Part shown: positions 15,369 to 44,885 of the stretch, piece after piece
Position numbering within the stretch: position 1 is the first letter of the stretch
How the letters are laid out: the number at the start of each line of letters is the position of its first letter
Source: an uncultured Alphaproteobacteria bacterium
GTDB taxonomy: Bacteria > Pseudomonadota > Alphaproteobacteria > SHNJ01
Direction: 5' to 3'
Length of the DNA stretch: 48,896 nt
Assembly: GCA_964427785.1 (NCBI GenBank)
Contig: CAYRVJ010000001.1
Location: forward strand, 1-48,896
Notes under the pieces: generated by a model
The model's input: only the letters and a program-made list of their open reading frames with translations
What the model was told of the DNA's origin: nothing
The model's database searches: none
Made by a program: the position numbers and the translations under genes

Positions 15369-15380
15369 TGTTAGCCTTTC

Positions 15381-24423: not shown

Positions 24424-24437
24424 TTGATTTAGATCAA
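24424..24437. promoter_or_regulatory. FNR/CRP-family binding site (TTGAT-TTAG-ATCAA) between narK and the divergent regulator gene
   Basis: Perfect palindrome ~110 nt upstream of the narK ATG and ~45 nt upstream of the ATG of the regulator at 24477. Confidence 0.7.
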
Positions 24438-27621: not shown

Positions 27622-27635
27622 TTGACCTAGGTCAA
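27622..27635. promoter_or_regulatory. FNR/CRP-family binding site, TTGAC-CTAG-GTCAA variant, between the YVTN gene and nrdD
   Basis: Perfect palindrome. On the plus strand a TATTTT -10-like hexamer (27658-27663) starts ~30 nt from the centre, giving class II geometry for nrdD. Confidence 0.65.
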
Positions 27636-27813: not shown

Positions 27814-29838
27814 ATGTCAGTAGCTGCCATCGCTCTTTCTTTGCCAAAATCCAACGCAAATAAAAAAAATATGCATCCGGATCCAAAAATGGATCATATA
27901 GTCACGTTGTTCGGGGGCACAGAAGTGGATTGTTCTGAAACGGTAAGCGAATATATTTCCGGGTCGGATTGGAGAATCAATGCTAATGCCAACACCGGAT
28001 ACTCGAATGCGGGAATGATTAATAATGTAGCGGGGAAAGTAATCGCCAATTTCTGGCTGGATGAAATATACAATCCCGAAGAAGGCCTGGCGCACCGTCA
28101 GGGCGACATTCATATCCATGATCTTGATTGTCTCACCGGATATTGCGCAGGCTGGTCGTTACGGGCGCTTTTGAATAGCGGGTTTAATGGCGTGGGGGGA
28201 CGGGTATCATCGCGTCCGCCGCGCCATTTCCGCGAGGCGTTGGGTCAAATGAGCAATTTTTTGGGCATCCTGCAATCCGAATGGGCGGGCGCGCAGGCGT
28301 TTTCTAGTTTTGATACATATCTGGCGCCTTATGTTTTTTACGATCAGCTTTCTTTCAAAGAAGTGAAGAAGGCGATTCGTCAATTCGTTTATAATTTAAA
28401 CGTTCCCGCGCGGTGGGGCCAGTCTCCGTTTACGAATATTACGCTTGATATTTCAGTTCCGCAAGACTTGCAGAATCAATTCCCAACATATAATGATTCG
28501 CACCTGTTCAAGGGCATCAAGAGCGATAGCTTGTTCTTGAGAGCTCAACAGCGAGACATGGGCATTCGCTCCCTTGAGGATCTTACATTCAAGCATTTCT
28601 TGCCGGAGATGGAAATGATCAACATCGCCTATTACGAGGTCATGACCGAAGGCGATTCAACTGGGCAGCCATTCACTTTTCCTATTCCTACCGTTAATAT
28701 TACTGAGGATTTCGACTGGGATAGCAAAGTAGCGAGCGCGATATTTGAGAATACAGCAAAAGTAGGTTCATCTTATTTCCAGAACTTTGTTGGAAGCCAA
28801 TATATTATCGACCCAGCGACAAAAGAGCGGAAACCAAATCCTGAAGCTTACTCACCGGGTGCTGTTCGCTCGATGTGCTGCCGCCTGCAGCTTGATTTGC
28901 GCGAACTTTTAAAGCGCGGCAACGGCCTTTTTGGCTCTGCGGAAATGACAGGATCTATCGGTGTTGTCACGCTCAACATGGCGCGGCTTGGATATCGTTT
29001 TAGAGGCGATTTAGAAGGAATGATGCGTGAAATCGACCGCTTAATGGACATATCCAAGTCAACGCTGGAGAAGAAACGCGCCTTTGTTCAGAAAATGCAT
29101 GATCGCGGGCTTTATCCTTATACATCGCGTTATCTTCCATTCTTTCGCAATCATTTTTCAACCATTGGCGTCAATGGCATGAATGAGATGGTCAGAAATT
29201 TCACAGGCGATGCCTATGATATTACTGATGAGCGGGGCATTCAAATATGCATCGATATTCTCGATCATATGCGGGCCAAGTTAGTCGGGTATCAAGAGGA
29301 AACCGGCAATTTGTATAATCTCGAAGCAACTCCGGCGGAAGGCACAACGTATCGCTTCGCCAAAGAGGATAAGAAACATTTTCCGGATATCATTCAAGCG
29401 GGAGCAGGGGAGAATATATACTACACCAATTCTTCTCAGATACCTGTTGATCATACGGACGATCCGTTTGAGGCGCTGGAATTGCAAAACCGCTTGCAAT
29501 GCAAGTATACAGGCGGCACTGTTTTGCACCTTTACATGAATGAAAAATTGTCCGACGCGGGAGCTTGCAAGCAATTCATCCGGAAAGTTTTGGGGAGCTA
29601 TCAATTGCCTTACATAACGGTTACACCAGTGTTTTCGGTATGCGATGCTCATGGATATTTAAATGGTGAGCAGCCGGAATGTCCGCATTGCCGGGCCAAA
29701 ACAAAAGTATGGACTAGGGTTATGGGATATTTCCGCCCTGTTGACAGTTTCAACAAAGGCAAACAAGGCGAACACCGCCAACGTAAACATTTTGTGGAGG
29801 ATTGGATTGATACGGGCAATCTCTTCGCAGGGGTGTGA
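27814..29838 (+). CDS. nrdD: Anaerobic (class III) ribonucleoside-triphosphate reductase
   Basis: 674 aa. The C-terminus has a Zn-ribbon Cys motif (VCDAHGY...CPHC) and the glycyl-radical motif TRVMGYFRPV. There is no N-terminal ATP-cone. Confidence 0.9.
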   Translation: MSVAAIALSLPKSNANKKNMHPDPKMDHIVTLFGGTEVDCSETVSEYISGSDWRINANANTGYSNAGMINNVAGKVIANFWLDEIYNPEEGLAHRQGDIHIHDLDCLTGYCAGWSLRALLNSGFNGVGGRVSSRPPRHFREALGQMSNFLGILQSEWAGAQAFSSFDTYLAPYVFYDQLSFKEVKKAIRQFVYNLNVPARWGQSPFTNITLDISVPQDLQNQFPTYNDSHLFKGIKSDSLFLRAQQRDMGIRSLEDLTFKHFLPEMEMINIAYYEVMTEGDSTGQPFTFPIPTVNITEDFDWDSKVASAIFENTAKVGSSYFQNFVGSQYIIDPATKERKPNPEAYSPGAVRSMCCRLQLDLRELLKRGNGLFGSAEMTGSIGVVTLNMARLGYRFRGDLEGMMREIDRLMDISKSTLEKKRAFVQKMHDRGLYPYTSRYLPFFRNHFSTIGVNGMNEMVRNFTGDAYDITDERGIQICIDILDHMRAKLVGYQEETGNLYNLEATPAEGTTYRFAKEDKKHFPDIIQAGAGENIYYTNSSQIPVDHTDDPFEALELQNRLQCKYTGGTVLHLYMNEKLSDAGACKQFIRKVLGSYQLPYITVTPVFSVCDAHGYLNGEQPECPHCRAKTKVWTRVMGYFRPVDSFNKGKQGEHRQRKHFVEDWIDTGNLFAGV

Positions 29839-29860
29839 TGCGATAGAACAGGAGAAATCT

Positions 29861-30568
29861 TTGCAAAGCAGGGCAAGTGTTCTTCCTATCTATTCTGTGA
29901 CGCCATTTACCATGCTCGACTTTCCCGGCAAGCCATCTTGTATCATCTGGTTCTCCGGGTGCAATATGCGCTGCGCATATTGTCATAATCCGCAGATTGT
30001 TAAGAGTAAGGGTCGTGGCGATGTCGCCGAAATCATGCATTTCCTTCAAAAAAGGCAAGGGCTTCTGGAGGGGGTAGTCTTGTCCGGGGGCGAGGCTTCA
30101 ATCTATCCGGGACTTCCCGATTTCATCAAGCACATCAAAGCATTGGGATATCAAGTTAAACTGGATACGAATGGGCTTCGCCCCGATATTATTTATCATC
30201 TGATGCAGAAAAGATTGCTCGATTATATTGCACTCGATTATAAGGCTCCGCCTAGTAAATTCAAACAAGTCACAGGCATGGACAAATATATCCTCTTTTC
30301 AAAAACCCTTGACTTGCTTTGCGGGCAGAAGGATTTGAATTTCGAAGTGCGCACTACTGTGCATACGGACTTAATGGATGAAGGCGATGTTTCCGATATT
30401 ATCCGCGATCTCGAGCGGCGCGGCTATTCCGGCCTTCATGCAATACAGAATTTCGCGCATAGCGACGAGCGGCCGACACTGGGATTTATGAATCCGCAGC
30501 GACGAGTGTTGGATATTTCAATGATCCATATTCCAAAGACTTTTAATCTGGCTTTTAGGAATTTCTAA
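29861..30568 (+). CDS. nrdG: Anaerobic RNR activating enzyme (radical SAM)
   Basis: FSGCNMRCAYCHN radical-SAM motif. TTG 29861 is preceded by AGGAGA, and there is no in-frame ATG before the conserved core. The ORF-track start at 29663 overlaps nrdD and is rejected. Confidence 0.8.
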   Translation: MQSRASVLPIYSVTPFTMLDFPGKPSCIIWFSGCNMRCAYCHNPQIVKSKGRGDVAEIMHFLQKRQGLLEGVVLSGGEASIYPGLPDFIKHIKALGYQVKLDTNGLRPDIIYHLMQKRLLDYIALDYKAPPSKFKQVTGMDKYILFSKTLDLLCGQKDLNFEVRTTVHTDLMDEGDVSDIIRDLERRGYSGLHAIQNFAHSDERPTLGFMNPQRRVLDISMIHIPKTFNLAFRNF

Positions 30569-30612: not shown

Positions 30613-30626
30613 TTGACCCAGGTCAA
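30613..30626. promoter_or_regulatory. FNR/CRP-family binding site, TTGAC-CCAG-GTCAA variant, upstream of the six-gene operon
   Basis: Perfect palindrome centred ~58 nt upstream of ATG 30678. A weak -10-like TATGGC lies at 30652-30657. Confidence 0.65.
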
Positions 30627-30677
30627 TTCAATTGAAGCAAAAATGCGTTTTTATGGCTTTAATATTTAGATGGTTCA

Positions 30678-31925
30678 ATGATCAAATTATCCTACAGCAC
30701 TAATGGCTTACTTTATCTTGACTTATTCTCCGCTATTGAGGCGGTCGAAAGCGTTGGGTATGCGGGAATAGAGCTTTGCTTCGATAAGAGGCAATTTAAT
30801 CCATTTGATCTCGGCAAAGATGATCTTGCGCGAATTAAAAGTTTTCTTGAAGGCAGGATAATTAAGCCTGCTTGCATCTCAACTCCTACCATTGCTTTTT
30901 TAACGGACAGGCCACATGAACCTTCAATTATCTGCCTCGATTTGGCGGGCAGAAAGCAACGTATAGAACTTATCAAAAAAGGCATCGAAATCGCGAAATC
31001 TTTAGGCGCGCCAATCGTCAGTTTTGGCAGCGGTTTTATTCGGGACGAGCATGTAAAGAATCCCGATATAAATCCGACGGATATTCTTATTGAAAGCATT
31101 GCTGAATGTCTAAAGAATATAGGCGATGTCATGCTGGTTATCGAGCCTGAGCCCGGTATGCTGATAGAGACAATCGACCAGGGTATAGATCTTATAAAGG
31201 CGGTAGGTTCGCCGCAGTTCCGGCTGCATATGGATCTGTGCCATGCATATTGTTCGGAAGACGATTATTTTGGATCCATAATTAAAGCGGCGCCATACAC
31301 GAGATATTTGCATGTGTCGGATACGGCGGGAGGATGCAATGTCAAACTGCTTTCTTATAAGAGCGATATGAATCTGGATTTCGATTTCGCCAGTTATCTC
31401 ATATATTTTCCCGACACATGCGATTTCCTTTACTTGGATAAACAGCAGGCATTTTGCTTTTGCGAAGATATACCGAATACATCTTTACTTAAAGCGGTTA
31501 AATATTTGGCTGGCAAGAAATTTGTTCGATATGTAAGTTACTGTGAATTGGATAAATCTTCGTCTGCTCTAGATCGGGAAATCAACACGTATGCCGTTTC
31601 GGTGCCGGGTTTGAGCTTCTGCGTTCTGGACAGGGCAAAACCGATACTGCGCTATCTCAGAACAAAACGAAGCAATGGCAAATCGATATTAGAAAAGAAA
31701 GTTGCGAATACGCTGACTGGCAAAGTGCATTATCACGACATCCCGGGGCAGGGCGAAATCGATTTCGCGCGCACATTCAGGGTTCTGGAGAAAAACGGGT
31801 TTAATGGGTACGCGACAGTGGAGCTGTATCATCATATTGATACATGGGAAAAAGCGCTCACGGAGAGCATGACTATACTTTCAAAGGCTGTTGCAGATGA
31901 TGGGAAGGAGAGAAAATATGCGTGA
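30678..31925 (+). CDS. Xylose-isomerase-like TIM-barrel protein (sugar-phosphate isomerase/epimerase/dehydratase superfamily, EboE/IolE-like) with a ~130-aa insertion
   Basis: GYAGIELC..., LGAPIVSFGSG, LVIEPEPG, HMDLCH, LHVSD and HYHDIPGQGEIDF...GYATVEL follow the canonical order of metal-binding strands in this fold. The segment between LHVSD and HYHD (aa ~218-348) is extra. Confidence 0.7.
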   Translation: MIKLSYSTNGLLYLDLFSAIEAVESVGYAGIELCFDKRQFNPFDLGKDDLARIKSFLEGRIIKPACISTPTIAFLTDRPHEPSIICLDLAGRKQRIELIKKGIEIAKSLGAPIVSFGSGFIRDEHVKNPDINPTDILIESIAECLKNIGDVMLVIEPEPGMLIETIDQGIDLIKAVGSPQFRLHMDLCHAYCSEDDYFGSIIKAAPYTRYLHVSDTAGGCNVKLLSYKSDMNLDFDFASYLIYFPDTCDFLYLDKQQAFCFCEDIPNTSLLKAVKYLAGKKFVRYVSYCELDKSSSALDREINTYAVSVPGLSFCVLDRAKPILRYLRTKRSNGKSILEKKVANTLTGKVHYHDIPGQGEIDFARTFRVLEKNGFNGYATVELYHHIDTWEKALTESMTILSKAVADDGKERKYA

Positions 31926-32421
31926 GGAGAAAAGCTACCTTCGGCGGCTGGGCTGGGATCCCGGCACGACTGGCGAACTGGACCATCGTGAAGTAAGCGC
32001 GCCTTATATTCGCCTGTCTTCGTGGAAGATGGGTGATCGGGGGGATAGCGTGTATCTTTTTGATATAAGAATGACACAGCCGAACGTAAATTTTTTATCG
32101 TCGCTGCAATTGCATTCTATAGAGCACTTCCTGCTAGCAGGGCTTAGAAAGCATTTGCCTCATGCTTTTGTCAACGTGGCTCCAATGGGATGCCAGACCG
32201 GATTTTACTTGGTAACCATTAACGAGGGGCGCGCCACCGCTATATGCGAAGCATATCAGAATACTCTTTTGGACATTCTCTCGGCAACGTCGGTTCCGTA
32301 TGCGAATATTAAAGATTGCGGCCAACATATTCACCATAATTTAAAAAATGCGCAGGTCCTGGCTGAATCTTTGCTGGCCTGCCAAAGTGATTGGCTGAAT
32401 ATTATGCGGACTGCAGCATGA
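31918..32421 (+). CDS. luxS: LuxS-family protein (S-ribosylhomocysteine-lyase fold)
   Basis: LDHREVSAPYIRL, GDSVYLFDIRMTQPN, HSIEHFLLAGLR (HxxEH metal/base motif), APMGCQTGFY and CGQHIHHNL are colinear with E. coli LuxS motifs. GGAAGGAGAG RBS. The ATG overlaps the upstream stop (ATGCGTGA). Confidence 0.8.
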   Translation: MREEKSYLRRLGWDPGTTGELDHREVSAPYIRLSSWKMGDRGDSVYLFDIRMTQPNVNFLSSLQLHSIEHFLLAGLRKHLPHAFVNVAPMGCQTGFYLVTINEGRATAICEAYQNTLLDILSATSVPYANIKDCGQHIHHNLKNAQVLAESLLACQSDWLNIMRTAA

Positions 32422-33578
32422 GTCAAGTCTCTGCAATCCGGACAATTTCTTGTTGCAGAAAGATCGAATATGAAATTATTTCATGCTTGCGTATTTTCGA
32501 TATTGGCAATAGGACTTTAGCCGATATCGGCGCAGGCAAAGGGTCCAAAAGATTTATTGTCTTAGATAAAAATGTTAAGGAATACCGATCTGCGATAACT
32601 TCGTATTTTGATTACTACGGTATTAAAACGCGGATTTCGCTCTTTGAATCTGGCGAGTCAAACAAGACCATTCAGAGAGCCGTCAAGCTTCTGAAAGAAT
32701 TGGATCAGTTTCCTATCCTTCGGCGCAGCGAACCTTTGGTGGCGATTGGCGGCGGCGTGTTGACGGACATGGTGGGATTTGCCGCCAGCATTTACCGCCG
32801 CGGCGTGCCGCATATCAAGATACCGACCACGCTTATGGGGTATGTGGATGCGGCGATTGGAATTAAATGCGGCGTTAATCTTAACAATGGAAAAAACAGA
32901 ATAGGCTCCTTTGAGCCTCCTCTAAAAGTACTTCTTGACCCTGATTTTTTACGCACCTTATCAAATAGGCAAATTTTAAATGGCGTCGGGGAAATCATCA
33001 AGCTTGCAATTATATCAGACGCGAAGTTATTCAACGGCCTAGAGTTGTTGGGAAATTCTTGCGTTCAAAAAAAATTCCAGGGTAGCGATTGCAAGCTAAT
33101 TCTTGATCGTTCGATCAATGCAATGCTCGATAATCTCGCTTCCAATTTATATGAAGAAGATTTATCGCGATCGGTTGATTTTGGCCATACTTTCAGTTTG
33201 GCTTACGAAATGGAATTAGGAAATGATTTGCTGCACGGCGAAGCTGTTGTCGTTGATGTAATTCTGTCCATCTTTTTGGCGAAGACAAAGGGAGTTTTGG
33301 CGGCGGCGGCGGCAGACCGCATACTTAAATTAATAGGGGCGTTTGATTATGACTTTTCCAGGGTGTTTCTAAAAACAGAAATCTTATGGGCATCGCTTCT
33401 GGAAAGACAAAAACATCGCGATGGTCAGCAAAGGATACCTCTGCCATGCGGAGTGGGGAAGCATGTCTTCGCAAATGATGTGACATATGAAGAATTGGAT
33501 CGCTCGAATGGTTTACTAAAGGATTGGATATATGAAGGAAGGAATTTATGCGAACGCCGATTTCTCAGAGCTGGATAA
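32418..33578 (+). CDS. 3-dehydroquinate-synthase-like sugar phosphate cyclase (EboD/EEVS/DDGS-like)
   Basis: GGGVLTDMVGFAASIYRRGVPHIKIPTTLMGYVDAAIGIKCGVNL..GKNRIGSF.PP, GVGEIIK, FGHTFS and LLHGEAV are present. The IGIK..VN loop (instead of the GGKT of true AroB) is, as I recall, typical of sedoheptulose-7-P cyclases. ATGA overlap with luxS. Confidence 0.75.
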   Translation: MSQVSAIRTISCCRKIEYEIISCLRIFDIGNRTLADIGAGKGSKRFIVLDKNVKEYRSAITSYFDYYGIKTRISLFESGESNKTIQRAVKLLKELDQFPILRRSEPLVAIGGGVLTDMVGFAASIYRRGVPHIKIPTTLMGYVDAAIGIKCGVNLNNGKNRIGSFEPPLKVLLDPDFLRTLSNRQILNGVGEIIKLAIISDAKLFNGLELLGNSCVQKKFQGSDCKLILDRSINAMLDNLASNLYEEDLSRSVDFGHTFSLAYEMELGNDLLHGEAVVVDVILSIFLAKTKGVLAAAAADRILKLIGAFDYDFSRVFLKTEILWASLLERQKHRDGQQRIPLPCGVGKHVFANDVTYEELDRSNGLLKDWIYEGRNLCERRFLRAG

Positions 33579-34248
33579 ATTTTCAAGACTGGCCGAGCTT
33601 TGGTGGGATAAAGATGGTGCCATGGGAATGTTGCATCGAATAAACGCCGCGCGCATGAGATTTATCGCCGACAATATCTGCATAGCAGGTAAAAAATCCA
33701 TAGATATAGGCTGTGGCGGAGGTATTTTAACCGAATCTCTCGCGCAAGCGGGGGCATATATGACAGGAATCGACTTGTCAGCGTCTGTCTTAAAAGCGGC
33801 TAGCGTTCATGCGGAAAAAAGCGGGCTAAATATAGATTACCGCTTGGAAAATTGCGAGGAAACGGCTGGAAAAAGTCCAGGGGAGTTTGATGCTGTTTTT
33901 TGCATGGAAGTGCTGGAACATGTTCCGGATCCGGGCCGCACAGTGGCTGCTTGCGCCCGATTGCTGAAACCAGGGGGGAGCGTATTTTTTTCTACAATAA
34001 ATAGAACGCTCAAAGCGTATTTTTTTGCAATTGTCGGTGCCGAATATGTTTTGCGGCTTTTGCCAAGAGGGACGCACATATATAAAAAGCTGATTAAGCC
34101 GCAAGAGCTGTTGATGTGGGCGGAGTCGTCTCATCTGGCCTTGGAGCGCACATCCAGTTTTATTTATAATCCGTTTTCAAGAAATTTCTCGCTGCGGAGC
34201 GGGGCGGATGTAAATTATATTGCTCATTACCGCAAGCCGCATGAATAA
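33532..34248 (+). CDS. ubiG: UbiG-like SAM-dependent O-methyltransferase
   Basis: Colinear with E. coli UbiG over essentially its full length (FSRLAELWWDKDG..LHRIN..R, IDIGCGGGILTESLA, FCMEVLEHVPDP, LLKPGGSVFFSTINR, VGAEYVLRLLPRGTH..KKLIKPQEL, DVNYIAHY). It overlaps the upstream gene by 47 nt. Confidence 0.8.
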   Translation: MKEGIYANADFSELDKFSRLAELWWDKDGAMGMLHRINAARMRFIADNICIAGKKSIDIGCGGGILTESLAQAGAYMTGIDLSASVLKAASVHAEKSGLNIDYRLENCEETAGKSPGEFDAVFCMEVLEHVPDPGRTVAACARLLKPGGSVFFSTINRTLKAYFFAIVGAEYVLRLLPRGTHIYKKLIKPQELLMWAESSHLALERTSSFIYNPFSRNFSLRSGADVNYIAHYRKPHE

Positions 34249-35194
34249 ATTTTTTGCCCTTTCCAGGAGCTATCATGCAATATTGGATATTGCGGCTCCC
34301 GCTTTTTGCGCCCTGTTGTGGTTGGGGGATTTTCCCTCCCCAGCCATCATCGCCCTATCTCTCTTTACCGCATTTTCGGGGTATACCGCCATTTATGCCT
34401 TAAATGATTTAATAGGGCATGCCGCGGATAAGGAGAAAATGCGGTATTCCCTCGCATATCAAGGATATTCTGTGGAATCGGCCCAGGCACGCCATCCTGT
34501 AGCGCAAGGAATATTGAGTTATAAAATGGCGGTACTATGGATGCTCTTTTGGATGATCGCGGCGATAATTGGGGCTTATCTGCTTAACCCCATTATCATT
34601 ATTATATTGCTTGCTGCGGCAGGTTGCGAGATTGCTTATTGTCGGCTGCTGAAGGTAACGCATTGGAGGTTGGTTCTTAGCGGCATTGTCAAAGCGGCCG
34701 GTCCAATTTCAGCGATATGGGTGGTGGATAGCTCCCCTTCGCCAGGGCCGGTTTTTTTATTGTTCATGTGGATTTTTTTCTGGGAAATTGGCGGACAGAA
34801 TATTCCGGCCGATTGGAATGATAAGCGCGAAGATAAGAAAGTGAATGCAAAGACTATTCCGCTTCTGTTTGGGGATGAAATATCTGGGAAAATTGTTTTT
34901 TTTAGCCTGTTGTTTGTCGTCGTTATTAGCGCACTTTTTCCGATAATCTCGCCACTACGATTGGGTTGGGAATATTTAGCCTTGAGCGTGTTTATAGGCA
35001 TTATGTTGCTTATAAAGCCTGCTTATAAGTTGTGCCGCGCGGATCATATTACCGACCAGCCTGCGCGGCTGTTTAATCGTGCCAGCTATTATCCACTGGC
35101 ATTGCTGCTGCTTATGGCCGCATTGATTTGGTATCATCATTTAAAGAACGGCCCCAGCGCCGTTGGCCAAATACTAAATTGGTCATTAATATGA
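34241..35194 (+). CDS. Atypical UbiA-superfamily prenyltransferase (EboC-like?)
   Basis: ~8 TM helices. The first motif is YALNDLIGHAADKE (NDxxGxxxD rather than NDxxDxxxD), followed by an unusual ~25-aa insert before RHPVAQG. The second motif is NDKREDKKVNAKTIP (DxxxD...T.P). The ATG overlaps the ubiG-like stop (ATGAATAA). Confidence 0.7.
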   Translation: MNKFFALSRSYHAILDIAAPAFCALLWLGDFPSPAIIALSLFTAFSGYTAIYALNDLIGHAADKEKMRYSLAYQGYSVESAQARHPVAQGILSYKMAVLWMLFWMIAAIIGAYLLNPIIIIILLAAAGCEIAYCRLLKVTHWRLVLSGIVKAAGPISAIWVVDSSPSPGPVFLLFMWIFFWEIGGQNIPADWNDKREDKKVNAKTIPLLFGDEISGKIVFFSLLFVVVISALFPIISPLRLGWEYLALSVFIGIMLLIKPAYKLCRADHITDQPARLFNRASYYPLALLLLMAALIWYHHLKNGPSAVGQILNWSLI

Positions 35195-35793
35195 CCAGCA
35201 TCATTGTCGCCGGTGGCGCAGTTATTATATTAGTTCTTATATTATATATTAGGAGTGTGGCAGGGACGCCGCCCGGAATTAATCGAAATCCGGCGGACGA
35301 TATTTTAAGTTGTATGCATATAGAGAAATTAAGTCCGGAATCTGGCGAGAATAATGCGCGGAGTGGGCTAAAAGATAATGGGACTGTCAGAATAAAAGCT
35401 TTTGTCCATAAAAGCGCACCGCAATTGCCTGGTCGACTATTATCTTTAGAAAATAAGAGCATATTGCCAAACCGCAGCAATAGAAAGGGCAGGCGCTCCC
35501 AGTATTATATCGCCCCACATTCCGGCTTAAAGAGCAAGAGGGGCAGAGGTAGGAAGCGTGTGCGTGCCGTGGCATCAGAGGATTTGATTGGTCAACAATT
35601 ACACTTGTTAAGTCCATGCTTTAACCGTATGTCAGATCCGGAGTTTATCAAAAAAGCAACTAACGGTATTAAGATAAGCAAATATACTGATGGCATTAAG
35701 ATAAGTGCAGATAAAGTCAATATTAAAAAATATCCTTATTGGTTAACTACCGCTAAGGATGCGATGTTAAAAGTAAACATCCGTAGCAGATAG
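35191..35793 (+). CDS. Hypothetical N-terminally membrane-anchored, highly basic protein
   Basis: ATG 35191 overlaps the UbiA-like stop (ATGA). It has one TM helix (IIVAGGAVIILVLILYI) followed by a K/R-rich soluble region (KGRRSQ, KSKRGRGRKRVR). No recognisable domain. Confidence 0.5.
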   Translation: MTSIIVAGGAVIILVLILYIRSVAGTPPGINRNPADDILSCMHIEKLSPESGENNARSGLKDNGTVRIKAFVHKSAPQLPGRLLSLENKSILPNRSNRKGRRSQYYIAPHSGLKSKRGRGRKRVRAVASEDLIGQQLHLLSPCFNRMSDPEFIKKATNGIKISKYTDGIKISADKVNIKKYPYWLTTAKDAMLKVNIRSR

Positions 35794-36396: not shown

Positions 36397-36783
36397 ATGA
36401 AAAAAATCCTCTCCAGCATTCTTATTATTTCTATCCTCGCGCTTTCGACTTTGTGCGCGATGCCGGTTGTTCATGCCAAGAGCAGCGCTCAGCAAGCCTC
36501 GCATTGCGAAACGGGCAATCATCACGATAAAAAAGATGCATCCAAAAATCTAATGTTGATGCAGGATTGCACCGGCGTCGATCTTCAATTGACCAAGGTT
36601 TTTACGCTGGAAAAACCCGATCTGCAAAAGCATTTGGTTTCCTATGTTTTGGTCAATGAATCCTATGGCTTTGGGTATGATCCAAGCCTGACCGGCGCGA
36701 TACGTGGCCCGCCCGATTGGCCGGGACTCTTTAACGCCACTTCTCCTTCCATTATTCTCAGCACGCAACGCCGCCTGATATAG
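36397..36783 (+). CDS. Secreted hypothetical protein with a His/Cys-containing N-terminal region
   Basis: Signal peptide (MKKILSSILIISILALSTLCAMPVVHA), then SHCETGNHHDKKD...QDC. It precedes the multicopper oxidase gene. Confidence 0.55.
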   Translation: MKKILSSILIISILALSTLCAMPVVHAKSSAQQASHCETGNHHDKKDASKNLMLMQDCTGVDLQLTKVFTLEKPDLQKHLVSYVLVNESYGFGYDPSLTGAIRGPPDWPGLFNATSPSIILSTQRRLI

Positions 36784-36836
36784 GTTCCCCTGCGCTCAAT
36801 TTAATTTTGCGCAGTTTTTTTATTTGGGGAATTTCT

Positions 36837-38447
36837 ATGAGGCATTTTTTATTTATTTTTGCTTTTATTTTATCGGCATCGTTCGCCATTGCGGCAGAAG
36901 CGGCGGAATACCGCCTTACCATTGCGCGCGAAACCGTCAATATTACCGGTAAACCGGTTGAAAAGATAACTGTTAATGGCACTATTCCGGCACCGACATT
37001 ACGTTTTACTGACGGCGAGGATGTCGTTATCCATGTCACCAACAATATGGACGAGCCGTCCTCGATCCACTGGCACGGTCTGATCCTGCCCGGCGAGATG
37101 GATGGCGTCCCTGGCTTTAACGGTTTTCCGGGTATTAAACCGCATTCGACTTTCACCTACCGTTTTAAAATCCGGCAGACTGGTACCTATTGGTATCACG
37201 CGCACAGCATGGGCCAGGAACAGGACGGGCTGTATGGTTCGATCATAGCCGCACCCGCCGGGATTGACCCCATCCGCACCGACCGCGATTATGTAATCGT
37301 GCTGTCGGATTTTACCGACGAAGATTCGGACGACATTATGGCCAATCTGAAAATGGCCTCGGATTACTATAACGTCGCGCGCCGGACGATTGGCGATTTC
37401 TTGGGCGATGTGAAAGCCAAAGGTTTCGATAAGGCTTGGAAAGATGCCAAGGATTGGGGCGATATGCGCATGTCGCCGACGGATCTTTCGGATGTTGGCG
37501 GTTACACATTCCTAATTAACGGCAAAACGCCCGCGCAAAACTGGACAGGAATTTTTAAATCCGGCGAACGTGTGAGACTGCGCTTTATCAACGCGTCCGC
37601 CATGTCGATTTACGATGTACTACGCATTCCGGGCCTGAAAATGACGGCGGTGCAGGCAGACGGGCAGAATATCGAACCCCTGAAAATAGACGAGTTCCGT
37701 TTCGCGCCGGCGGAAACATATGATGTCGTGATCACGCCGGAAGAAGACAAAGCTTATACCATCGCCGCCGAATCCATCGACCGCACCGGATTTGCCATCG
37801 GCACGCTTGCGCCGCGCGAAGGTATGAAAGCCGAAATCCCGCCGCATCGCCCGCGCGCGCTTCTGACGATGGGCGATATGGGCGGCATGATGGATATGGA
37901 AGATATGGTGATGACGCCGGAAGACATGAAAAGCGGCTGGGCCGAAGCCGGAACGCCCAAAGACGATAAGGCGCTTAGCTATAAAGATCTGCGTTATGCC
38001 GGAATCCAGAAAGACACGCGCGAACCTGGGCGTACCATCGAAGTGCGTTTGGGCGGGAATATGGAACGGTATATCTGGACGATCAATGGAAAGAAGTTCA
38101 TCGATGCCGATCCGATCCGCCTAAAATATGGTGAACGGGTACGGTTGAATTTTACCAATGACACGATGATGGCGCATCCGATGCATTTGCATGGCATGTT
38201 CGTGCAATTGGAAAACGGACAGCCTGCGGAAAAACTGCCCAACAAGCACACCGTGATCGTCCCGCCGGGACAATCTTATTCGGTGCTGCTAACAGCGGAC
38301 GAAGCCGGAGAATGGGCGTTCCACTGCCATCTTTTATTCCACATGATGTCGGGAATGATGACCAAAGTGGTGGTCGCCAAACTGGATGCGGTGGATATTC
38401 CCGATAATATTCCCGCACCGGCCCAAGGAGGTTCCCATGCGCATTAA
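36837..38447 (+). CDS. copA: Copper-resistance multicopper oxidase (CopA/PcoA type)
   Basis: Four copper-ligand motifs are present (IHWHG, YHAHS, HPMHLHG, HCHLLFHMMSGM), together with a Met-rich loop (MGDMGGMMDMEDMVM). ATG 36837 precedes a signal-like N-terminus. Confidence 0.9.
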   Translation: MRHFLFIFAFILSASFAIAAEAAEYRLTIARETVNITGKPVEKITVNGTIPAPTLRFTDGEDVVIHVTNNMDEPSSIHWHGLILPGEMDGVPGFNGFPGIKPHSTFTYRFKIRQTGTYWYHAHSMGQEQDGLYGSIIAAPAGIDPIRTDRDYVIVLSDFTDEDSDDIMANLKMASDYYNVARRTIGDFLGDVKAKGFDKAWKDAKDWGDMRMSPTDLSDVGGYTFLINGKTPAQNWTGIFKSGERVRLRFINASAMSIYDVLRIPGLKMTAVQADGQNIEPLKIDEFRFAPAETYDVVITPEEDKAYTIAAESIDRTGFAIGTLAPREGMKAEIPPHRPRALLTMGDMGGMMDMEDMVMTPEDMKSGWAEAGTPKDDKALSYKDLRYAGIQKDTREPGRTIEVRLGGNMERYIWTINGKKFIDADPIRLKYGERVRLNFTNDTMMAHPMHLHGMFVQLENGQPAEKLPNKHTVIVPPGQSYSVLLTADEAGEWAFHCHLLFHMMSGMMTKVVVAKLDAVDIPDNIPAPAQGGSHAH

Positions 38448-39153
38448 AATTCTAGGTTTGGCTTTGCTGTTTTTAACTTCTCCCGCGCTGGCCGAAGAAA
38501 TCACCCATGATATGGCGGCGGAACATGGCGGCGGCATTTTCCATATGTTTCGTTTTGAGGCCGATTATGGAGGCAGTTCCAACGGCGCGGTTGCCAGCTG
38601 GGATTTGGACGGCTGGGTCGGCGGGGATGATGACAAGCTTTGGATCAAAAGCGAAGGCGAGCGCGCCGACGGCAGATTGGAACAGGCCGAATTTTGGGCG
38701 CTGTATAGCCGTAACATCGCAACGTTCTGGGATGCGCAGGCTGGCATCCGTTATGATGCAAAGCCCGAATCCACTGCTTATCTCGCCTTCGGCTTTACTG
38801 GGCTTGCGCCTTATTTCTTTGAAACCGAAGCGCATGTGTTTATCAGCGATGAAGGCGATCTCAGCCTGCGTCTACGAGAAGAGAACGACTTTCTTCTGAC
38901 GCAGCAACTTATTCTGCAGCCTTATGTGGAAATCAATCTCTCCGCCCAGGACGTGCCGGAAAACGATATTGGCTCCGGCTTCACCAGCGGCGAGATAGGA
39001 TTGCAAACACGGTATGAGTTCACACGCAAGTTCGCGCCATATTTGGATTTACGATACGAGCGCAAGTTTGGCGAAACGGCCTCTATTGCCGCAAGCGACG
39101 GAGAAGACAAAGACAATTTCATCGCCGCAATCGGTTTGCGGCTTATGTTTTAA
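38437..39153 (+). CDS. copB: Copper-resistance outer-membrane protein CopB/PcoB family
   Basis: AAGGAGG RBS and a signal peptide. WDLDGWVGGDDDKLWIKSEGE...AQAGIRYD... is typical of CopB, and the sequence ends with an aromatic beta-barrel terminus (RLMF). Confidence 0.85.
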   Translation: MRIKILGLALLFLTSPALAEEITHDMAAEHGGGIFHMFRFEADYGGSSNGAVASWDLDGWVGGDDDKLWIKSEGERADGRLEQAEFWALYSRNIATFWDAQAGIRYDAKPESTAYLAFGFTGLAPYFFETEAHVFISDEGDLSLRLREENDFLLTQQLILQPYVEINLSAQDVPENDIGSGFTSGEIGLQTRYEFTRKFAPYLDLRYERKFGETASIAASDGEDKDNFIAAIGLRLMF

Positions 39154-39173
39154 CCCCAACGAAAGAAAAGACT

Positions 39174-39854
39174 ATGAAGAAAATAATTCTAATAATGGCA
39201 CTGGCATTGCTGGCAAGCCCCGCCATGGCCAAAGAATATATCATCAAGGAAGTCAGCGATCCTGCGGGTAAGACGCCTTATTATTTCTCGCCGGACAAAT
39301 TAACCATCCAGCCGGGCGATACCGTCACCTTCGTCAACGTGCAGGAAGACATGCATGATGTGATGTTTATCAGTGTTCCAAAGACGGTTGATGAAATGAT
39401 CATGAGCCCGAAACACGAAAAAGAAGGCGAGAAATGGTCTTATAAATTTACCGTTCCAGGCACATATCAATTCCATTGCCATGCGCATGAGGCACTGGGC
39501 ATGAAAGGTACATTGATCGTCGGTCAAGCCTCGAATGCCGGTGAAACTAAAACGATGGATCACCATAAAATGACGGAAAAATATGAGAGTGATTCCAGCG
39601 GCCATGCAGGGATGGGAGCATCGAATCTTCCGCAAGGTACGGGTAGGATTAACAATGTTGATGAGGACAAACGCACGATCAACATTACCCACGATCCGAT
39701 CAAGGCGCTCGGCTGGCCGAAAATGAAAATGGAATTTCCGGTCGATAAAAGCGTTGATTTATCGGGTTTAAAAGCCGGTGATGCTGTGTCGTTCACTTTA
39801 AAGCCAAGCGCGAATGATGATTACAGCATCAACACGATCAAAAAAGGAGAGTAA
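39174..39854 (+). CDS. Periplasmic cupredoxin (plastocyanin/pseudoazurin-like) fused to a CusF-like copper-binding domain
   Basis: Signal peptide. The type-1 copper motif YQFHCHAHEALGMKGTLIV is present, and the C-terminus GRINNVDEDKRTINITHDPIKALGWPKMKMEFPV is CusF-like. Confidence 0.75.
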   Translation: MKKIILIMALALLASPAMAKEYIIKEVSDPAGKTPYYFSPDKLTIQPGDTVTFVNVQEDMHDVMFISVPKTVDEMIMSPKHEKEGEKWSYKFTVPGTYQFHCHAHEALGMKGTLIVGQASNAGETKTMDHHKMTEKYESDSSGHAGMGASNLPQGTGRINNVDEDKRTINITHDPIKALGWPKMKMEFPVDKSVDLSGLKAGDAVSFTLKPSANDDYSINTIKKGE

Positions 39855-39856
39855 TT

Positions 39857-40141
39857 ATGAAACTATATTTGTTTCTTTTGGCAATTATTTTAGGAACCGC
39901 TTTCTTCACGAATCCGGCTTATGCTGAGCAAAAACCTGCTTCGCAAATCGTGCCGCCCAAATACGAGCATTTACCGGCGAGGGAATTTAAACGCCACAAG
40001 GCCGGTATTAGACGGATGGTTCATTTACCACCGATGTTGATTCAAAAAATCGATGTACTGGACGACAGCCGAATGTCGAGCGGTGAAATCGCCATTCCAG
40101 ATGTGCCGCGTTCGACGTTTGAGAAATACCAATCCAAGTAG
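39857..40141 (+). CDS. Small secreted hypothetical protein
   Basis: 94 aa with a signal peptide (MKLYLFLLAIILGTAFFTNPAYA). It starts 3 nt after the upstream stop. Confidence 0.5.
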   Translation: MKLYLFLLAIILGTAFFTNPAYAEQKPASQIVPPKYEHLPAREFKRHKAGIRRMVHLPPMLIQKIDVLDDSRMSSGEIAIPDVPRSTFEKYQSK

Positions 40142-40211
40142 TTTATTTTATTAAGTTACAGCGGGTAATACCATGACTCATCTTAACCACTTTTATAAAG
40201 GAGCTTTCAAT

Positions 40212-40574
40212 ATGAAGAAATTTAATGCTTTAAGGCAATTTTTTATTCTATCATTTGCAATACTTTTATTGTCCGGCTGCGCCAGCAACGGTACGGATGC
40301 CGCCAGTGGCCGTCCGATGTGTCCCATGATGGACGGTAAATCATGTTGTGAAAAGATGATGGAAGGCAAAACTTGTTGCTGTTGCCAAAAAATGATGGAA
40401 AACTGCATGATGAAGGATGGCAAGCCGATGGACATGAAACAGTGCCAACAAATGATGCAAGGCGGGATGATGAAGGATCAATCGGTAGCGCCTGCTGATA
40501 TCCAACCTGCTCCTGCTGCAAGTTCAGAGGATCATAAAAAGCATCACACGCAAGACAATAAAGAGGTGAAATAA
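40212..40574 (+). CDS. Met/Cys-rich lipoprotein (putative copper-binding)
   Basis: AAGGAG RBS and a lipobox LLSGC. The mature part has repeated C/M clusters (CPMMDGKSCCEKMMEGKTCCCCQKMMENCMMKDGKPMDMKQCQQMMQGGMMKD). Confidence 0.65.
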   Translation: MKKFNALRQFFILSFAILLLSGCASNGTDAASGRPMCPMMDGKSCCEKMMEGKTCCCCQKMMENCMMKDGKPMDMKQCQQMMQGGMMKDQSVAPADIQPAPAASSEDHKKHHTQDNKEVK

Positions 40575-40813
40575 TGGCACACGATCATCAGCATGATCCG
40601 AATTGTCATAAACCGCATAATCTTATGCGGTTTATGTGGCTAATTTATTTGACACTAGCCGGTATCGTCATCCTCTACTTGCTGGAATATCACTGGCAGC
40701 ATACGATTGGCGTTCTGCCATATCTGATTTTATTGTTATGCCCCCTGATGCATTTCCTAATGCCGCACGGGCATCATCGCCATGATGAAAAAGACAATAC
40801 GCCAAAATCATAA
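40574..40813 (+). CDS. Small His-rich membrane protein (DUF2933-like) preceding the Cu-ATPase
   Basis: 79 aa with two TM helices flanked by His-rich ends (MAHDHQHDPNCH..., MPHGHHRHDE). This arrangement is common upstream of heavy-metal P-type ATPases. Confidence 0.6.
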   Translation: MAHDHQHDPNCHKPHNLMRFMWLIYLTLAGIVILYLLEYHWQHTIGVLPYLILLLCPLMHFLMPHGHHRHDEKDNTPKS

Positions 40814-40834
40814 TCGTCACAGGGAGTAAGTTTC

Positions 40835-43054
40835 ATGCATCAGCATCAGGTTAAGACTTCGGAAACGGGCAGTTGCCATCATGCTAAACCGGACGCGAAG
40901 CATGAAGCTCCTCTCAAAATAGCATCGGGCGGCGCAGATGCGATCTACACTTGCCCGATGCACCCGCAAATACGTCAAAAAGGGCCAGGCAATTGCCCGA
41001 TCTGCGGCATGGCGCTGGAGCCTGAGAATATCGCCATTCAAGATGGGCCTGATCCCGAATTAAAAGATATGAGCCGCCGCTTTTGGGTGGCCGCCATCTT
41101 ATCCGCTCCGTTGTTGCTGTTTAGCATGGGCGGGCATTTTTCCAATGAGATGCTGCATGCATTTCTAATGAGTCCGCTTGCCACCTGGGGCCAATTGGTC
41201 ATCGCAACGCCTGTAGTTTTATGGGCAGGATGGCCATTTTTCGAGCGCGGCTGGATGTCGATAAAAAATAAAAATTTGAATATGTTTACTCTTATCTCGC
41301 TTGGCGTCGGTGTCGCCTATTTCTACAGTCTATTCATTACGCTATTCCCAAGTTTTATAGAGCAATGGCTGGATGGAACGAATCTTTCCAAAGACGTTTA
41401 TTTTGAAGCCGCTGCTGTGATCACCGCGCTGGTTTTGTTGGGTCAGGTTTTGGAGCTGCGCGCACGCGCGCAAACTTCGAGCGCGATGCGGGCGTTGCTT
41501 GATCTTGCTCCAGCAACGGCGCGTATTATCCGCTCTAATGGAAACGAGGAGGATATTCCATTAGCACATGTACATAAGGGGGATATTCTGCGCGTCCGTC
41601 CCGGTGAGAAAATTCCCGTTGATGGTATTTTGCTTGAAGGCAAAAGTTCCATCGATCAATCGATGATCACCGGCGAACCGATACCGGTGGAAAAGAATCC
41701 CGGCGAAACCGTCATCGGCGCTACCATTAACGGTACCGGCAGTTTCACCATGCGCGCGGAACGGGTAGGACAGGAAACTTTGCTTGCGCAAATCGTGGAT
41801 ATGGTGGCCAAAGCGCAGCGCACGCGCGCGCCCATTCAAAGGCTCGCGGATAAAGTGTCGGGCTATTTTGTTCCTGCAGTGATCGCAATCGCCGTGCTAG
41901 CTGCCGTTATTTGGGGAATTTATGGCCCCGAACCAAAAACCGGCTATGCGATTCTTAATGCTGTAGCGGTACTTATCATTGCGTGCCCTTGCGCGTTAGG
42001 TCTGGCGACGCCTATGTCCATCATGGCCGGTACGGGCCGTGGTGCAAAGGCAGGAGTGCTGATTAAAAATGCCGAAGCATTGGAAGGATTCGAGAAAGTC
42101 GATACCTTGATTGTCGATAAAACCGGCACCTTGACCGAAGGCAAACCGAAATTGATAACTGTGGTTGCGGAGCAAGGTTTCGATGAACAAACCGTACTGA
42201 CTTTTGCCGCAAGCCTGGAACGTGGCAGCGAACACCCTTTGGCAGCAGCTATCGTACAAGGCGCGGCGCAACGTAAACTGGAACTGCATAACCCAGCAGA
42301 TTTTCAATCTATTACCGGCAAGGGCGTTACCGGTACCGTACAGGGCCGAAAAGTGGCGTTGGGAAATCTTGCCTTGCTGGATTCAATGCGTATAGATGCA
42401 TCGCATTTAAAAAGTCAGGCGGATAATTTCCGGGCGCAAGGGCAGACGGCCATGTTTGTGGCGATAGACGGCAAGTTAGCGGGGCTGGTCACTGTCGCCG
42501 ATCCGATCAAAGCTACAACAATAGAAGCTATTAAGCTTTTGAAGGAGGATGGCCTGCATATTGTTATGCTGACCGGCGATAATAAGACTACAGCGGCAGC
42601 GGTTGCCGCGAAAGTCGGTATCGATGATGTGATCGCGGACGTATTGCCCGATCAGAAAAACGCCGCCGTCCGCAAGTTACAAGAGCAAGGACATAGCGTG
42701 GCTATGGCAGGAGACGGAATTAACGATGCGCCCGCTTTGGCGCAGGCCAATGTCGGGATCGCCATGGGAACCGGCGCGGATGTTGCTATGGAAAGCGCGG
42801 GCATCACGCTTATAAAAGGCGATTTGATGGGCATCGTGCGCGCAAGGCATCTAAGCCGCGCAACCATGCGCAATATCCGGCAAAACCTGTTCTTTGCTTT
42901 TATCTATAACGCACTGGGCGTGCCGATTGCTGCAGGCGTCCTGTATCCGTTTTTTGGTATTTTGCTTAGCCCTATTTTTGCCAGTGCGGCGATGGCATTC
43001 AGTTCGGTTTCCGTTATCGTAAATAGCTTACGGCTCCGGTCGACGCGGCTTTAG
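40835..43054 (+). CDS. copA: Copper-translocating P1B-type ATPase
   Basis: N-terminal [24 protein letters not shown] metal-binding domain. The CPC motif ([13 protein letters not shown]), DKTGTLT, MLTGDN and [10 protein letters not shown] are all present. Confidence 0.9.
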
Positions 43055-44509: not shown

Positions 44510-44885
44510 TAACGACGAATATCAGGTTGGCTATGCCAAGCCGCCGAAAAATACCCAATTCCAGCCCGGTAAAAGCGGAAACCCGAAAGGCCGTCCAAAG
44601 GGCGCGAAGGGGATTGCCACCGTCTTTATGGAAGAGGCGAATCAGAAGGTTTCGATCAAAATCGGCGATAAAACCGTGAAAATCACGAAATTGCAGGCGA
44701 CCGTGAAGCGGCTATTCCAGCAAGCGCTGGAGGGTAAGCCGCACGCCATCGCCCGTATTACCGAGATGGCGCGGGTTATCGAGCCGCAAATGGAACAAAA
44801 GCCGGATCAGGCCTTGTCGGCGGACGATCAGAATATTCTTCGCGAATATGTAAAGCGGCAAATGCAGGACGGCGTCGATGGTTGA
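44496..44885 (+). CDS. DUF5681-like phage protein (small-terminase position)
   Basis: GYAKPPKNTQFQPGKSGNPKGRPKGAKG is the N-terminal signature. It lies immediately upstream of, and overlaps, the large terminase gene. Confidence 0.65.
   Translation: MTDDNNDEYQVGYAKPPKNTQFQPGKSGNPKGRPKGAKGIATVFMEEANQKVSIKIGDKTVKITKLQATVKRLFQQALEGKPHAIARITEMARVIEPQMEQKPDQALSADDQNILREYVKRQMQDGVDG

Follow-up and report, generated by a model that had tools for sequence, protein, structure and literature searches.

A conserved five-gene cassette of Alphaproteobacteria and Anaerolineales with a predicted route from sedoheptulose-7-phosphate to a prenylated, methylated ring

In the ebo cluster (eboABCDEF), which was reported in 2026 to make the morphogen thallusin, a 3-dehydroquinate synthase (DHQS)-like cyclase occurs together with a xylose-isomerase-like triose-phosphate isomerase (TIM) barrel and a UbiA prenyltransferase, and a sugar-phosphate-derived aromatic or cyclitol head group is formed and then prenylated. 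The same three families are found, and the same logic is expected, in a cassette of genes lying in the stretch of DNA analyzed here, 48,896 nucleotides from an uncultured alphaproteobacterium (contig CAYRVJ010000001.1 of assembly GCA_964427785.1; the whole stretch is referred to as the window hereafter). However, the cassette adds LuxS-like and UbiG-type enzymes, its gene order differs, and it shows no sign of the aspartate-derived nitrogen chemistry of ebo. The conserved core of the ebo cluster consists of eboB, C, E and F (thallusin preprint), and EboD is reported to cyclize mannose-6-phosphate to a C6 cyclitol (PMC12904256). We file the cassette as a variant among the cyclitol-plus-prenyl biosynthetic clusters.

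A sedoheptulose-7-phosphate cyclase acts first in the pathways of validamycin (EEVS, the synthase making 2-epi-5-epi-valiolone), of vertebrate gadusol (EEVS and MT-Ox) and of the mycosporines (desmethyl-4-deoxygadusol synthase, DDGS), and the same is predicted for the cassette. As in the cassette, an S-adenosylmethionine-dependent O-methyltransferase is found downstream in the gadusol and 4-deoxygadusol pathways; that of the cassette is of the UbiG type, whereas that of gadusol and mycosporine is of the caffeoyl-CoA/MT-Ox type. Unlike the C7-cyclitol pathways, the cassette is devoid of genes for an oxidoreductase, an ATP-grasp enzyme, an aminotransferase, a kinase and a glycosyltransferase, while the gadusol and mycosporine pathways do not have its TIM barrel, LuxS-like and UbiA-like enzymes, and a prenylated, membrane-bound product is predicted for it. 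To our knowledge, the TIM barrel and the LuxS-like enzyme occur in no described C7-cyclitol pathway.

The logic proposed for the cassette is also that of the UbiT/UbiU/UbiV pathway: a locus preceded by an FNR site would keep a benzoquinone available for anaerobic (nitrate) respiration in Pseudomonadota. The enzymes of that pathway are, however, unrelated to those of the cassette, and in the 4-hydroxybenzoate route they take the place of no more than the three hydroxylases, whereas the cassette would build the entire oxygenated ring from a sugar, bypassing also UbiC, UbiD/X and UbiE. The ubiTUV genes, through which ubiquinone is made anaerobically under FNR activation, occur in just 17% of Alphaproteobacteria (PMC11707229). 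A different solution may thus exist in the others. Neither the U32-family UbiU and UbiV nor the SCP2-type UbiT was found among the 38 scanned proteins of the window, a set in which NarG, NrdD and NrdG are not included.

The cassette is a widespread, strictly conserved and uncharacterized pathway of five genes. The best explanation that we can offer is that it is self-contained, has spread horizontally between Alphaproteobacteria and Anaerolineales, and makes a membrane-bound, prenylated and O-methylated ring from sedoheptulose-7-phosphate, an intermediate of the pentose-phosphate pathway; we judge the chances for and against this explanation to be evenly balanced. An earlier examination of the window from its letters alone (the sequence-only reading) had stated that no system of this composition was known to it. 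This statement agrees with the literature searched for the cassette, where no description was found beyond an incidental entry: the five genes appear, uncommented, in a table of the 20-kb neighborhood of a NirS gene in a Chloroflexi metagenome-assembled genome (MAG; PMC8756737).

Conservation and layout of the cassette

The order TIM barrel, LuxS-like enzyme, cyclase, methyltransferase and UbiA-like protein, all on the same strand, was found in 46 of the 46 metagenome loci with sufficient sequence. Counted here, out of 80 metagenome loci fetched with the TIM-barrel profile, are those in which the distance between the TIM-barrel gene start and the contig end is at least 4.7 kb. The same gene order is seen in the alphaproteobacterial MAGs (L001, L002-4 and L010-11), in Anaerolineales of the Chloroflexota (L005-8), in a MAG named 'Proteobacteria bacterium' (L012) and in unassigned metagenome contigs (L013 and L014). 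All five proteins of the window are 50-58% identical to those of the Anaerolineales copies, and this degree of identity across phyla indicates that the cassette was transferred as a unit and was then held under strong purifying selection. Relatives of the TIM barrel form 984 clusters (90% identity) in the protein database at E <= 1e-10, and the scan of the genome collection with the TIM-barrel protein as the query gave one locus. An oxidoreductase, a kinase, an aminotransferase and a glycosyltransferase were looked for within the cassette in the annotated loci and the 46 complete loci, and none was found. Thus, after cyclization, only isomerization or dehydration, methylation and prenylation are possible as steps of the pathway.

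In the window, six overlapping open reading frames (ORFs) on the plus strand span positions 30678-35793, on the 3′ side of an FNR-type palindrome (Table 1). The TIM-barrel and LuxS-like genes are joined at 31918 by ATGCGTGA, inside which lies the ATG of the latter; the LuxS-like and cyclase genes meet in ATGA at 32418; the cyclase and methyltransferase ORFs overlap by 47 nt (33532/33578); the methyltransferase and UbiA-like genes are joined by ATGAATAA at 34241; and ORF6 is start/stop-coupled to the UbiA-like gene through ATGA at 35191. The chain of start/stop overlaps described in the sequence-only reading is thus seen at every junction, the perfect FNR-type box that it placed before the operon is present, and its family assignments for five of the genes hold in the Pfam, NCBIfam and PDB sequence searches. 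Its view of the operon as a six-gene unit has to be revised, however. No homolog of ORF6 was found in any of the 80 metagenome loci, and ORF6 is absent in L010 and in Anaerolineales; its sole counterpart is a 27%-identical ORF on the 3′ side of the cassette in a related lineage (L003), and it has no Pfam or NCBIfam match. The absence of homologs in these loci indicates that ORF6 is lineage-specific and stands outside the conserved unit, which consists of five genes. Scans for sigma-70 promoters and terminators gave no enrichment as compared with shuffled sequences, and the blastn search of the region against plasmids gave nothing beyond an irrelevant 92-bp Neisseria match.

Table 1. Positions of the six ORFs and of the upstream palindrome in the window
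Feature	Position	Strand	Characteristics
TIM barrel, metal-dependent, xylose-isomerase-like	30678-31925	+	415 aa; Pfam AP_endonuc_2, E 1.7e-32
LuxS-like metalloenzyme	31918-32421	+	167 aa; Pfam LuxS, E 6.9e-36
Predicted EEVS-type sedoheptulose-7-phosphate cyclase	32418-33578	+	386 aa; Pfam DHQ_synthase and DHQS_C
UbiG-type O-methyltransferase	33532-34248	+	238 aa; Pfam Methyltransf_11, TIGR01983
Putative divergent UbiA-family intramembrane prenyltransferase	34241-35194	+	317 aa; Pfam UbiA, E 1.6e-25
ORF6, N-terminal hydrophobic segment and basic region	35191-35793	+	200 aa; without family match
FNR/Crp-type palindrome TTGACCCAGGTCAA	30613-30626	unstranded	presumed anaerobic activator site

The enzymes of the cassette

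The assignment of the cyclase as an EEVS-type sedoheptulose-7-phosphate cyclase, rather than AroB, is supported by several sequence comparisons. Among the PDB sequences, ValA (4P53) is the best match with an E-value of 4.5e-80, followed by DDGS (5TPR, 3.1e-65), while the best DHQS gives 5.1e-44. On the aroB model, which is its best NCBIfam match, the cyclase scores 236.8 as against a cutoff of 305. Its residues L240, D254 and H333 align with L267, D281 and H360 of ValA and are kept in 62, 62 and 61, respectively, of 62 cassette cyclases, whereas in the alignment DDGS has Glu, Ala and Thr at the three sites and DHQS has Asn at the middle one. We take these sites to be the fingerprint of the family (L267, D281 and H360 in ValA versus E254, A268 and T347 in DDGS), in a numbering that agrees with the chain offsets of the alignment and that reportedly goes back to Kean et al. 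in 2014. Two fingerprint sites are known to distinguish EEVS from DDGS (eLife 2015). The sequence-only reading had already favored a sedoheptulose-7-phosphate cyclase over AroB, and this choice is borne out; the IGIK loop, which it regarded as the marker, gives way in that role to the ValA fingerprint residues. The C7 (EEVS) fingerprint speaks against an identity of the cyclase with EboD. A glycerol-1-phosphate dehydrogenase, as among archaeal-lipid genes, was rejected as a candidate, the corresponding model giving only 23 bits.

The TIM barrel carries an inserted beta/alpha subdomain of about 120 aa, and its metal-ligand set (Glu156, Asp186, His212 and Glu382) is invariant in 20 orthologs. 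Its AlphaFold 2 model has a pLDDT (predicted local distance difference test) value of 82, and the Foldseek neighbors of the model are UlaE, tagatose 3-epimerase and other ketose 3-epimerases, the isomerase Art22, IolI and the aromatizing dehydratase AsbF. All of these fold neighbors deprotonate next to a carbonyl. The fold and the Glu-Asp-His-Glu metal site are shared with UlaE, IolI, IolE, AsbF and the ketose 3-epimerases, and deprotonation beside a carbonyl would be expected of the cassette enzyme, too; AsbF aromatizes a keto-cyclohexene through dehydration. The extra subdomain, however, is not found in IolI, IolE, AsbF and UlaE, and the sequence similarity is weak, with E-values of 6e-5 or weaker against PDB sequences. 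On the TIM_EboE model (NF035939), the protein scores 11.2 bits (E 0.11) versus a cutoff of 250. We propose that the TIM barrel enolizes, epimerizes or dehydrates the C7 cyclitol.

The LuxS-like protein scores 123.7 bits on the Pfam LuxS model and is 45% identical to Helicobacter pylori LuxS; however, none of the ten LuxS equivalog models of NCBIfam gives it a score above the cutoff, the best being 130.5 bits versus 208. The fold, the metal site formed by HxxEH and Cys, and the catalytic Cys and Glu are common to LuxS (S-ribosylhomocysteinase) and the cassette protein: H66, E69, H70, C92 and C134, which make up HxxEH, the metal site and the catalytic residues, are kept in 77-80 of 80 copies, and the equivalents of Cys84, Glu57, His11 and Arg39 are retained. 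A clear contrast is seen in the N-terminal motif, which is (V/I/A)ESFxxDH in 62 canonical LuxS representatives and x-Gly-Glu-(L/I)-Asp-His in the cassette type, with xGE standing in place of ESF. The Phe7 position is Gly in 78 of the 80 cassette copies, and the Ser6 position is Val, Ile, Leu or Met in 74 of them (Thr in the window). In LuxS, Ser6 and Phe7 of ESF line the active site of the partner subunit. When 90 LuxS domains were placed in a neighbor-joining tree, the cassette type grouped into a clade with 17 members, none of them canonical.

The exhaustive protein search with the LuxS-like query gave 580 representatives. Six of them, from separate 50%-identity clusters, are fusions of AP_endonuc_2 and LuxS (P0243, P0245, P0251, P0262, P0298 and P0259), whereas canonical LuxS is fused to PNP_UDP_1 (Pfs) in P0267 and P0371. 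One of the six fusions, P0243, sits in a complete cassette (L015). In another locus (L016), a TIM-LuxS fusion is followed by a cyclase with the EEVS fingerprint, and neither a methyltransferase gene nor a UbiA gene was detectable in the 10.5-kb contig; the fusion-plus-cyclase module is also present on a shorter contig (L017). A module of this kind without a methyltransferase ties the LuxS-like enzyme to the cyclitol rather than to methylation. A Pfs (PNP_UDP_1) gene was found in no locus examined. Thus, the fusions, the L016 module and the separate clade suggest that the LuxS-like enzyme partners the TIM barrel on the product of the adjoining cyclitol synthase, and not Pfs on S-ribosylhomocysteine. 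LuxS acts on ribose by stepwise carbonyl migration and then by beta-elimination, which turns CH2-X into a methyl group (C5 becomes the methyl of 4,5-dihydroxy-2,3-pentanedione, DPD). The same chemistry, carbonyl migration and beta-elimination, is proposed for the cassette enzyme on the cyclitol.

Two further proteins of the LuxS search are mentioned for their architecture. P0341 is a LuxS homolog of 511 aa with a Hint and a LAGLIDADG homing-endonuclease domain, that is, an intein after about residue 86. P0277 (462 aa) is a fusion of a family 2 glycosyltransferase with LuxS whose N-terminal motif, EVPVEIDH, is non-canonical; in this protein, the LuxS fold may be put to a further non-canonical use.

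The methyltransferase scores 262 bits on the UbiG model TIGR01983 (cutoff, 103) and matches E. coli UbiG (4KDC) over the full length with an E-value of 3.6e-74 and 50% identity over 225 residues, the alignment running through the segment 165-190. The Anaerolineales copies score 254-278 bits on the UbiG model, and the proteins of both phyla are 48-53% identical to E. coli UbiG. The UbiA-like protein, called a divergent UbiA prenyltransferase in the sequence-only reading, is indeed not a standard UbiA or MenA: it scores 36.7 bits on TIGR01474 (proteobacterial UbiA) as against a cutoff of 275, its best score on any model is 50.9 versus 269, it lies below every NCBIfam equivalog cutoff, and no PDB sequence was matched. 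The first of its Asp-rich motifs reads NDxxGxxxD in 55 of 58 copies and has lost the middle Asp in them; NDxxED, the second one, is retained, as is RxPxAQ.

Genomic setting and the FNR-type box

The center of TTGACCCAGGTCAA lies 58.5 bp on the 5′ side of the first ATG, and a -10-like TTTTAT at 30649-30654 would bring the box to about -41.5, where FNR sites of class II lie. Seven TTGA-N6-TCAA sites occur in the window as compared with 1.28 expected, and none of 100 shuffled sequences reaches seven. Six of the seven sites are intergenic, namely that of the cassette at 30613 and those at 10870, 13835, 21653, 24424 and 27622. In four other alphaproteobacterial lineages (L001, L002-4 and L010-11), a box is located 58-86 bp on the 5′ side of the orthologous first gene; its form in these relatives is TTGAC-N4-(G/A)TCAA, and it precedes the first gene in each arrangement.

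Based on Pfam matches, the genes of the window are ordered as follows: MoeB-like, MobA, MoaE, MoaC/B and MoaA for the molybdenum cofactor (Moco), a Crp/Fnr regulator (11210-11911), NnrS, and NarI, NarJ, NarH and NarG; and then a NarK-NarK fusion, a second Crp/Fnr regulator (24477-25220), MoeA, NrdD and NrdG, the cassette, and copper-resistance genes. The labels NarG, NrdD and NrdG rest on size, position and homology to annotated loci. The cassette lies on the 3′ side of nrdDG in L002-4 and L020, on the 5′ side of nrdDG-moeA-narK in L001 and L019, and between the Moco genes and fnr-nnrS-narIJH in L010-11. The alphaproteobacterial copies are, therefore, always in an island of nitrate-respiration, nrdDG and Moco genes, and the recurrence of this setting in three independent arrangements points to a functional connection with anaerobic nitrate respiration in Alphaproteobacteria. 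An FNR-type regulator presumably activates the operon together with the nitrate reductase, Moco and nrdDG genes. The link to FNR and nitrate respiration made in the sequence-only reading consequently stands for the alphaproteobacterial copies, in which the box and the island are kept, but it does not extend to the Anaerolineales copies, which have neither.

Among the Anaerolineales-type loci, other neighbors recur. Genes of MenA-like prenyltransferases adjoin the cassette upstream, downstream or on both sides in 11 loci, a gene of a UbiE/MenG-like methyltransferase is near it in 7 loci, and that of a 288-aa protein of no named family in 16 loci. In 6 loci, AdoHcy (S-adenosylhomocysteine, SAH) hydrolase and PfkB kinase genes occur 4-9 kb upstream of the cassette.

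Several features of individual loci were also observed. In L013, the cassette follows a NiFe-hydrogenase/Hyp maturation cluster, and a near-equivalog of cyclopropane fatty acid synthase (580 bits versus a cutoff of 600) is encoded directly on its 3′ side (14618-15850). In L012, the UbiA gene (9706-10604) was called in two pieces of 124 aa and 154 aa, owing to a frameshift, a pseudogene or an assembly error, and a gene of a DAO-family FAD oxidoreductase follows it. In the window, the five intergenic boxes other than that of the cassette have the form TTGAT/C-N4-ATCAA (10870-10883, 13835-13848, 21653-21666, 24424-24437 and 27622-27635) and sit on the 5′ side of the Moco, PpiC-nar, narG/narK, fnr/narK and nrdD genes, respectively, so that the stretch from 7 to 31 kb looks like a single FNR regulon island with two Crp/Fnr paralogs. 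The 879-aa MFS protein encoded on the minus strand at 21679-24318, on the 5′ side of narG, has three stretches matched to MFS_1 and is roughly double the size of one MFS transporter; a fusion of two NarK transporters (NarK-NarK) is probable, and the protein is 78-84% identical in related loci. Between nnrS and the nar operon, directly downstream, in minus-strand direction, of the box at 13835, lies a minus-strand gene of the pyridoxamine-5′-phosphate oxidase family (13106-13738), which is an odd site for a nominally O2-using enzyme. The listed nrdG ORF (29663-30568) begins inside nrdD, which ends at 29838, and the homologous matches start near 29900; the true start is, thus, probably downstream of the listed one. 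Directly on the 3′ side of the cassette, a copper-resistance block (36397-43054) encodes the multicopper oxidase CopA, CopB, a cupredoxin-CusF fusion and a P-type ATPase with HMBD, and an ORF of 128 aa for a secreted-looking protein precedes this block. Mobile or phage-like genes, encoding an AbiU2 HEPN protein, a ParB-N6/N4 DNA methylase, a large terminase and a DUF2924 protein, are found at both ends of the window (448-999 and 43187-47837), and the anaerobic island may have a prophage or an integrative element as its neighbor.

Proposed pathway, rival explanations and significance

The product of the cassette is probably a prenylated, methylated, C7-cyclitol-derived ring. In a valiolone-type cyclitol, C1 is a ketone, C2-C4 bear hydroxyls, C5 bears both a hydroxyl and a hydroxymethyl, and C6 is a methylene. 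In the first step of the proposed pathway, the cyclase would form such a cyclitol (C7H12O6), as its family and fingerprint suggest. In the second, the TIM barrel and the LuxS-like enzyme, each a member of a family that acts by deprotonation beside a carbonyl, would jointly perform metal-assisted enolization, carbonyl migration and two beta-eliminations of water to give an aromatic ring: with the loss of the C5 and C7 hydroxyls as two waters, 5-methylbenzene-1,2,3,4-tetrol (C7H8O4) would result, the second water being lost after migration of the carbonyl to C4, in the way that LuxS makes the methyl of DPD from C5 of ribose. The pattern of this tetrol, in which four contiguous oxygens occupy C1-C4, C5 bears the methyl and C6 is free, is position for position that of the ubiquinol head group. 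The UbiA-like enzyme would then prenylate the free C6, and the UbiG-type enzyme would methylate the vicinal C2 and C3 hydroxyls to yield ubiquinol; E. coli UbiG does both O-methylations in ubiquinone synthesis. We infer the stoichiometry and the positional mapping onto ubiquinol from the known structure of 2-epi-5-epi-valiolone. Such a route would need no O2, hydroxylase, decarboxylase, C-methyltransferase or net redox step, and its polyhydroxybenzene intermediates, being sensitive to oxygen, would fit with anaerobic induction of the pathway. In the alphaproteobacterium of the window, a respiratory quinone or a related redox lipid would thereby be supplied without oxygen. An origin of the ring oxygens from the sugar, and not from O2, as suggested in the sequence-only reading, is consistent with all of the findings.

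That the product is specifically of the ubiquinol type is a tentative suggestion, to which we assign a probability clearly short of even. A substantial, though less than even, chance is given to the fuller form of this proposal: an O2-independent, redox-neutral route to a benzoquinone of the ubiquinone or demethoxy-ubiquinone type, with the ring derived from sedoheptulose-7-phosphate instead of chorismate and 4-hydroxybenzoate and with a neofunctionalized LuxS forming the methyl. Several points weigh against the proposed pathway. The UbiA-like protein has no middle Asp in its first motif and belongs to no characterized subfamily, so that aromatic C-prenylation is an assumption. Because the equivalents of Arg39, His11 and Cys84 are kept in the LuxS-like protein, it may conceivably have genuine S-ribosylhomocysteinase activity. 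Other outcomes of aromatization would be as plausible chemically, namely hydroxymethyl-benzenetriols or, via three dehydrations, a ring of the demethoxy-ubiquinone type; the ring and side-chain dehydrations might also occur in another order, or the product might be non-aromatic. The Anaerolineales-type loci have no FNR box and no consistent respiratory neighbors. Most of the copies reside in Chloroflexota, a phylum for which we know of no report of ubiquinone. The O2-dependent ubiquinone pathway was found to be absent outside Pseudomonadota (PMC11707229).

The cassette may instead make a prenylated, methylated, cyclitol-derived secondary metabolite, such as a signal, a siderophore-like chelator, an antioxidant or a pigment, and no respiratory quinone, in analogy to the ebo cluster and its thallusin. 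This would fit the cyclase, TIM barrel and UbiA families in common with ebo, the unlikeness of the UbiA-like enzyme to known quinone prenyltransferases and the lack of a consistent respiratory context around the Anaerolineales copies, and the module of TIM-LuxS fusion and cyclase without a prenyltransferase would give a soluble small molecule. However, the methyltransferase is a full-length UbiG equivalog in both phyla, the three independent alphaproteobacterial arrangements are inside FNR-boxed nitrate-respiration islands, MenA-like and UbiE-like neighbor genes recur, and the cassette has no amino-group donor or other tailoring genes; taken together, we hold the secondary metabolite to be possible but clearly less likely than not. 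It would be another matter if the LuxS homolog were an ordinary S-ribosylhomocysteinase that clears the by-product of the methyltransferase or supplies DPD, with the TIM barrel alone processing the cyclitol. Despite the Pfam E-value, the identity to H. pylori LuxS and the complete set of metal ligands and catalytic equivalents, we consider this improbable: the protein is fused to a TIM barrel, and not to Pfs, in six representatives of separate clusters, it occurs beside the cyclase where no methyltransferase was found, it forms a clade of its own with Ser6-Phe7 replaced in 78 of 80 copies, it is below every LuxS equivalog cutoff, and the AdoHcy hydrolase genes of six loci offer an alternative route for SAH. 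On the grounds of the fusions, the lack of a Pfs gene in the loci and the module without a methyltransferase, a role as a helper in SAH recycling was rejected.

Two explanations would make the cassette a familiar one. If it were an ebo cluster in rearranged form, with thallusin or a near analog as its product, the families shared with eboD, eboE and eboC would be accounted for, but the TIM barrel is far below the TIM_EboE cutoff; eboA, eboB (TatD-like) and eboF (alkaline-phosphatase-family phosphodiesterase) were not found among the Pfam-annotated genes of the window and L002-L014, and the cassette comprises just its five genes in the 46 complete loci; the reported core of eboB, C, E and F is not matched by the cassette; and the cyclase fingerprint is that of a C7 product, whereas EboD is described as a C6 cyclase (PMC12904256). 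On the TIM_EboE score, the core genes absent from the annotated loci and the C7 fingerprint, an ebo cluster was rejected as very improbable, and the description of the operon in the sequence-only reading as ebo-like in three families yet distinct from ebo is upheld. Ordinary housekeeping aroB, ubiG and ubiA genes clustered by chance would be in keeping with the name UbiG that the model gives to the methyltransferase and with aroB as the best NCBIfam match of the cyclase. This explanation is contradicted by the aroB and UbiA scores and by the EEVS fingerprint, since the cyclase is below the aroB cutoff and far nearer to ValA and DDGS than to DHQS, and the UbiA-like protein scores 37 bits where proteobacterial UbiA requires 275; the cassette also occurs in Anaerolineales, which have no known ubiquinone pathway. 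The probability that we leave to it is next to nothing.

The redox range of a respiratory chain is determined by its isoprenoid quinones, and one question about them is when the high-potential ones arose relative to atmospheric oxygen. The only ubiquinone route known to us is the 4-hydroxybenzoate-based one, with O2-dependent hydroxylases or UbiUVT. If the proposed ubiquinol-type pathway is true, a sugar-derived route that needs neither oxygen nor a hydroxylase would be a new answer to the question of quinone origin. Anaerolineales would then make a high-potential benzoquinone, extending benzoquinone synthesis to the Chloroflexota, and some nitrate-respiring Alphaproteobacteria would switch to a sugar-derived route under FNR control, which would explain nitrate respiration by Alphaproteobacteria without ubiTUV. 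Whatever the product is, the cassette represents a widespread, strictly conserved and uncharacterized five-gene pathway that is new, with a probable second function of the LuxS fold, beyond quorum sensing and the recycling of methyl groups, and a new branch of C7-cyclitol chemistry.

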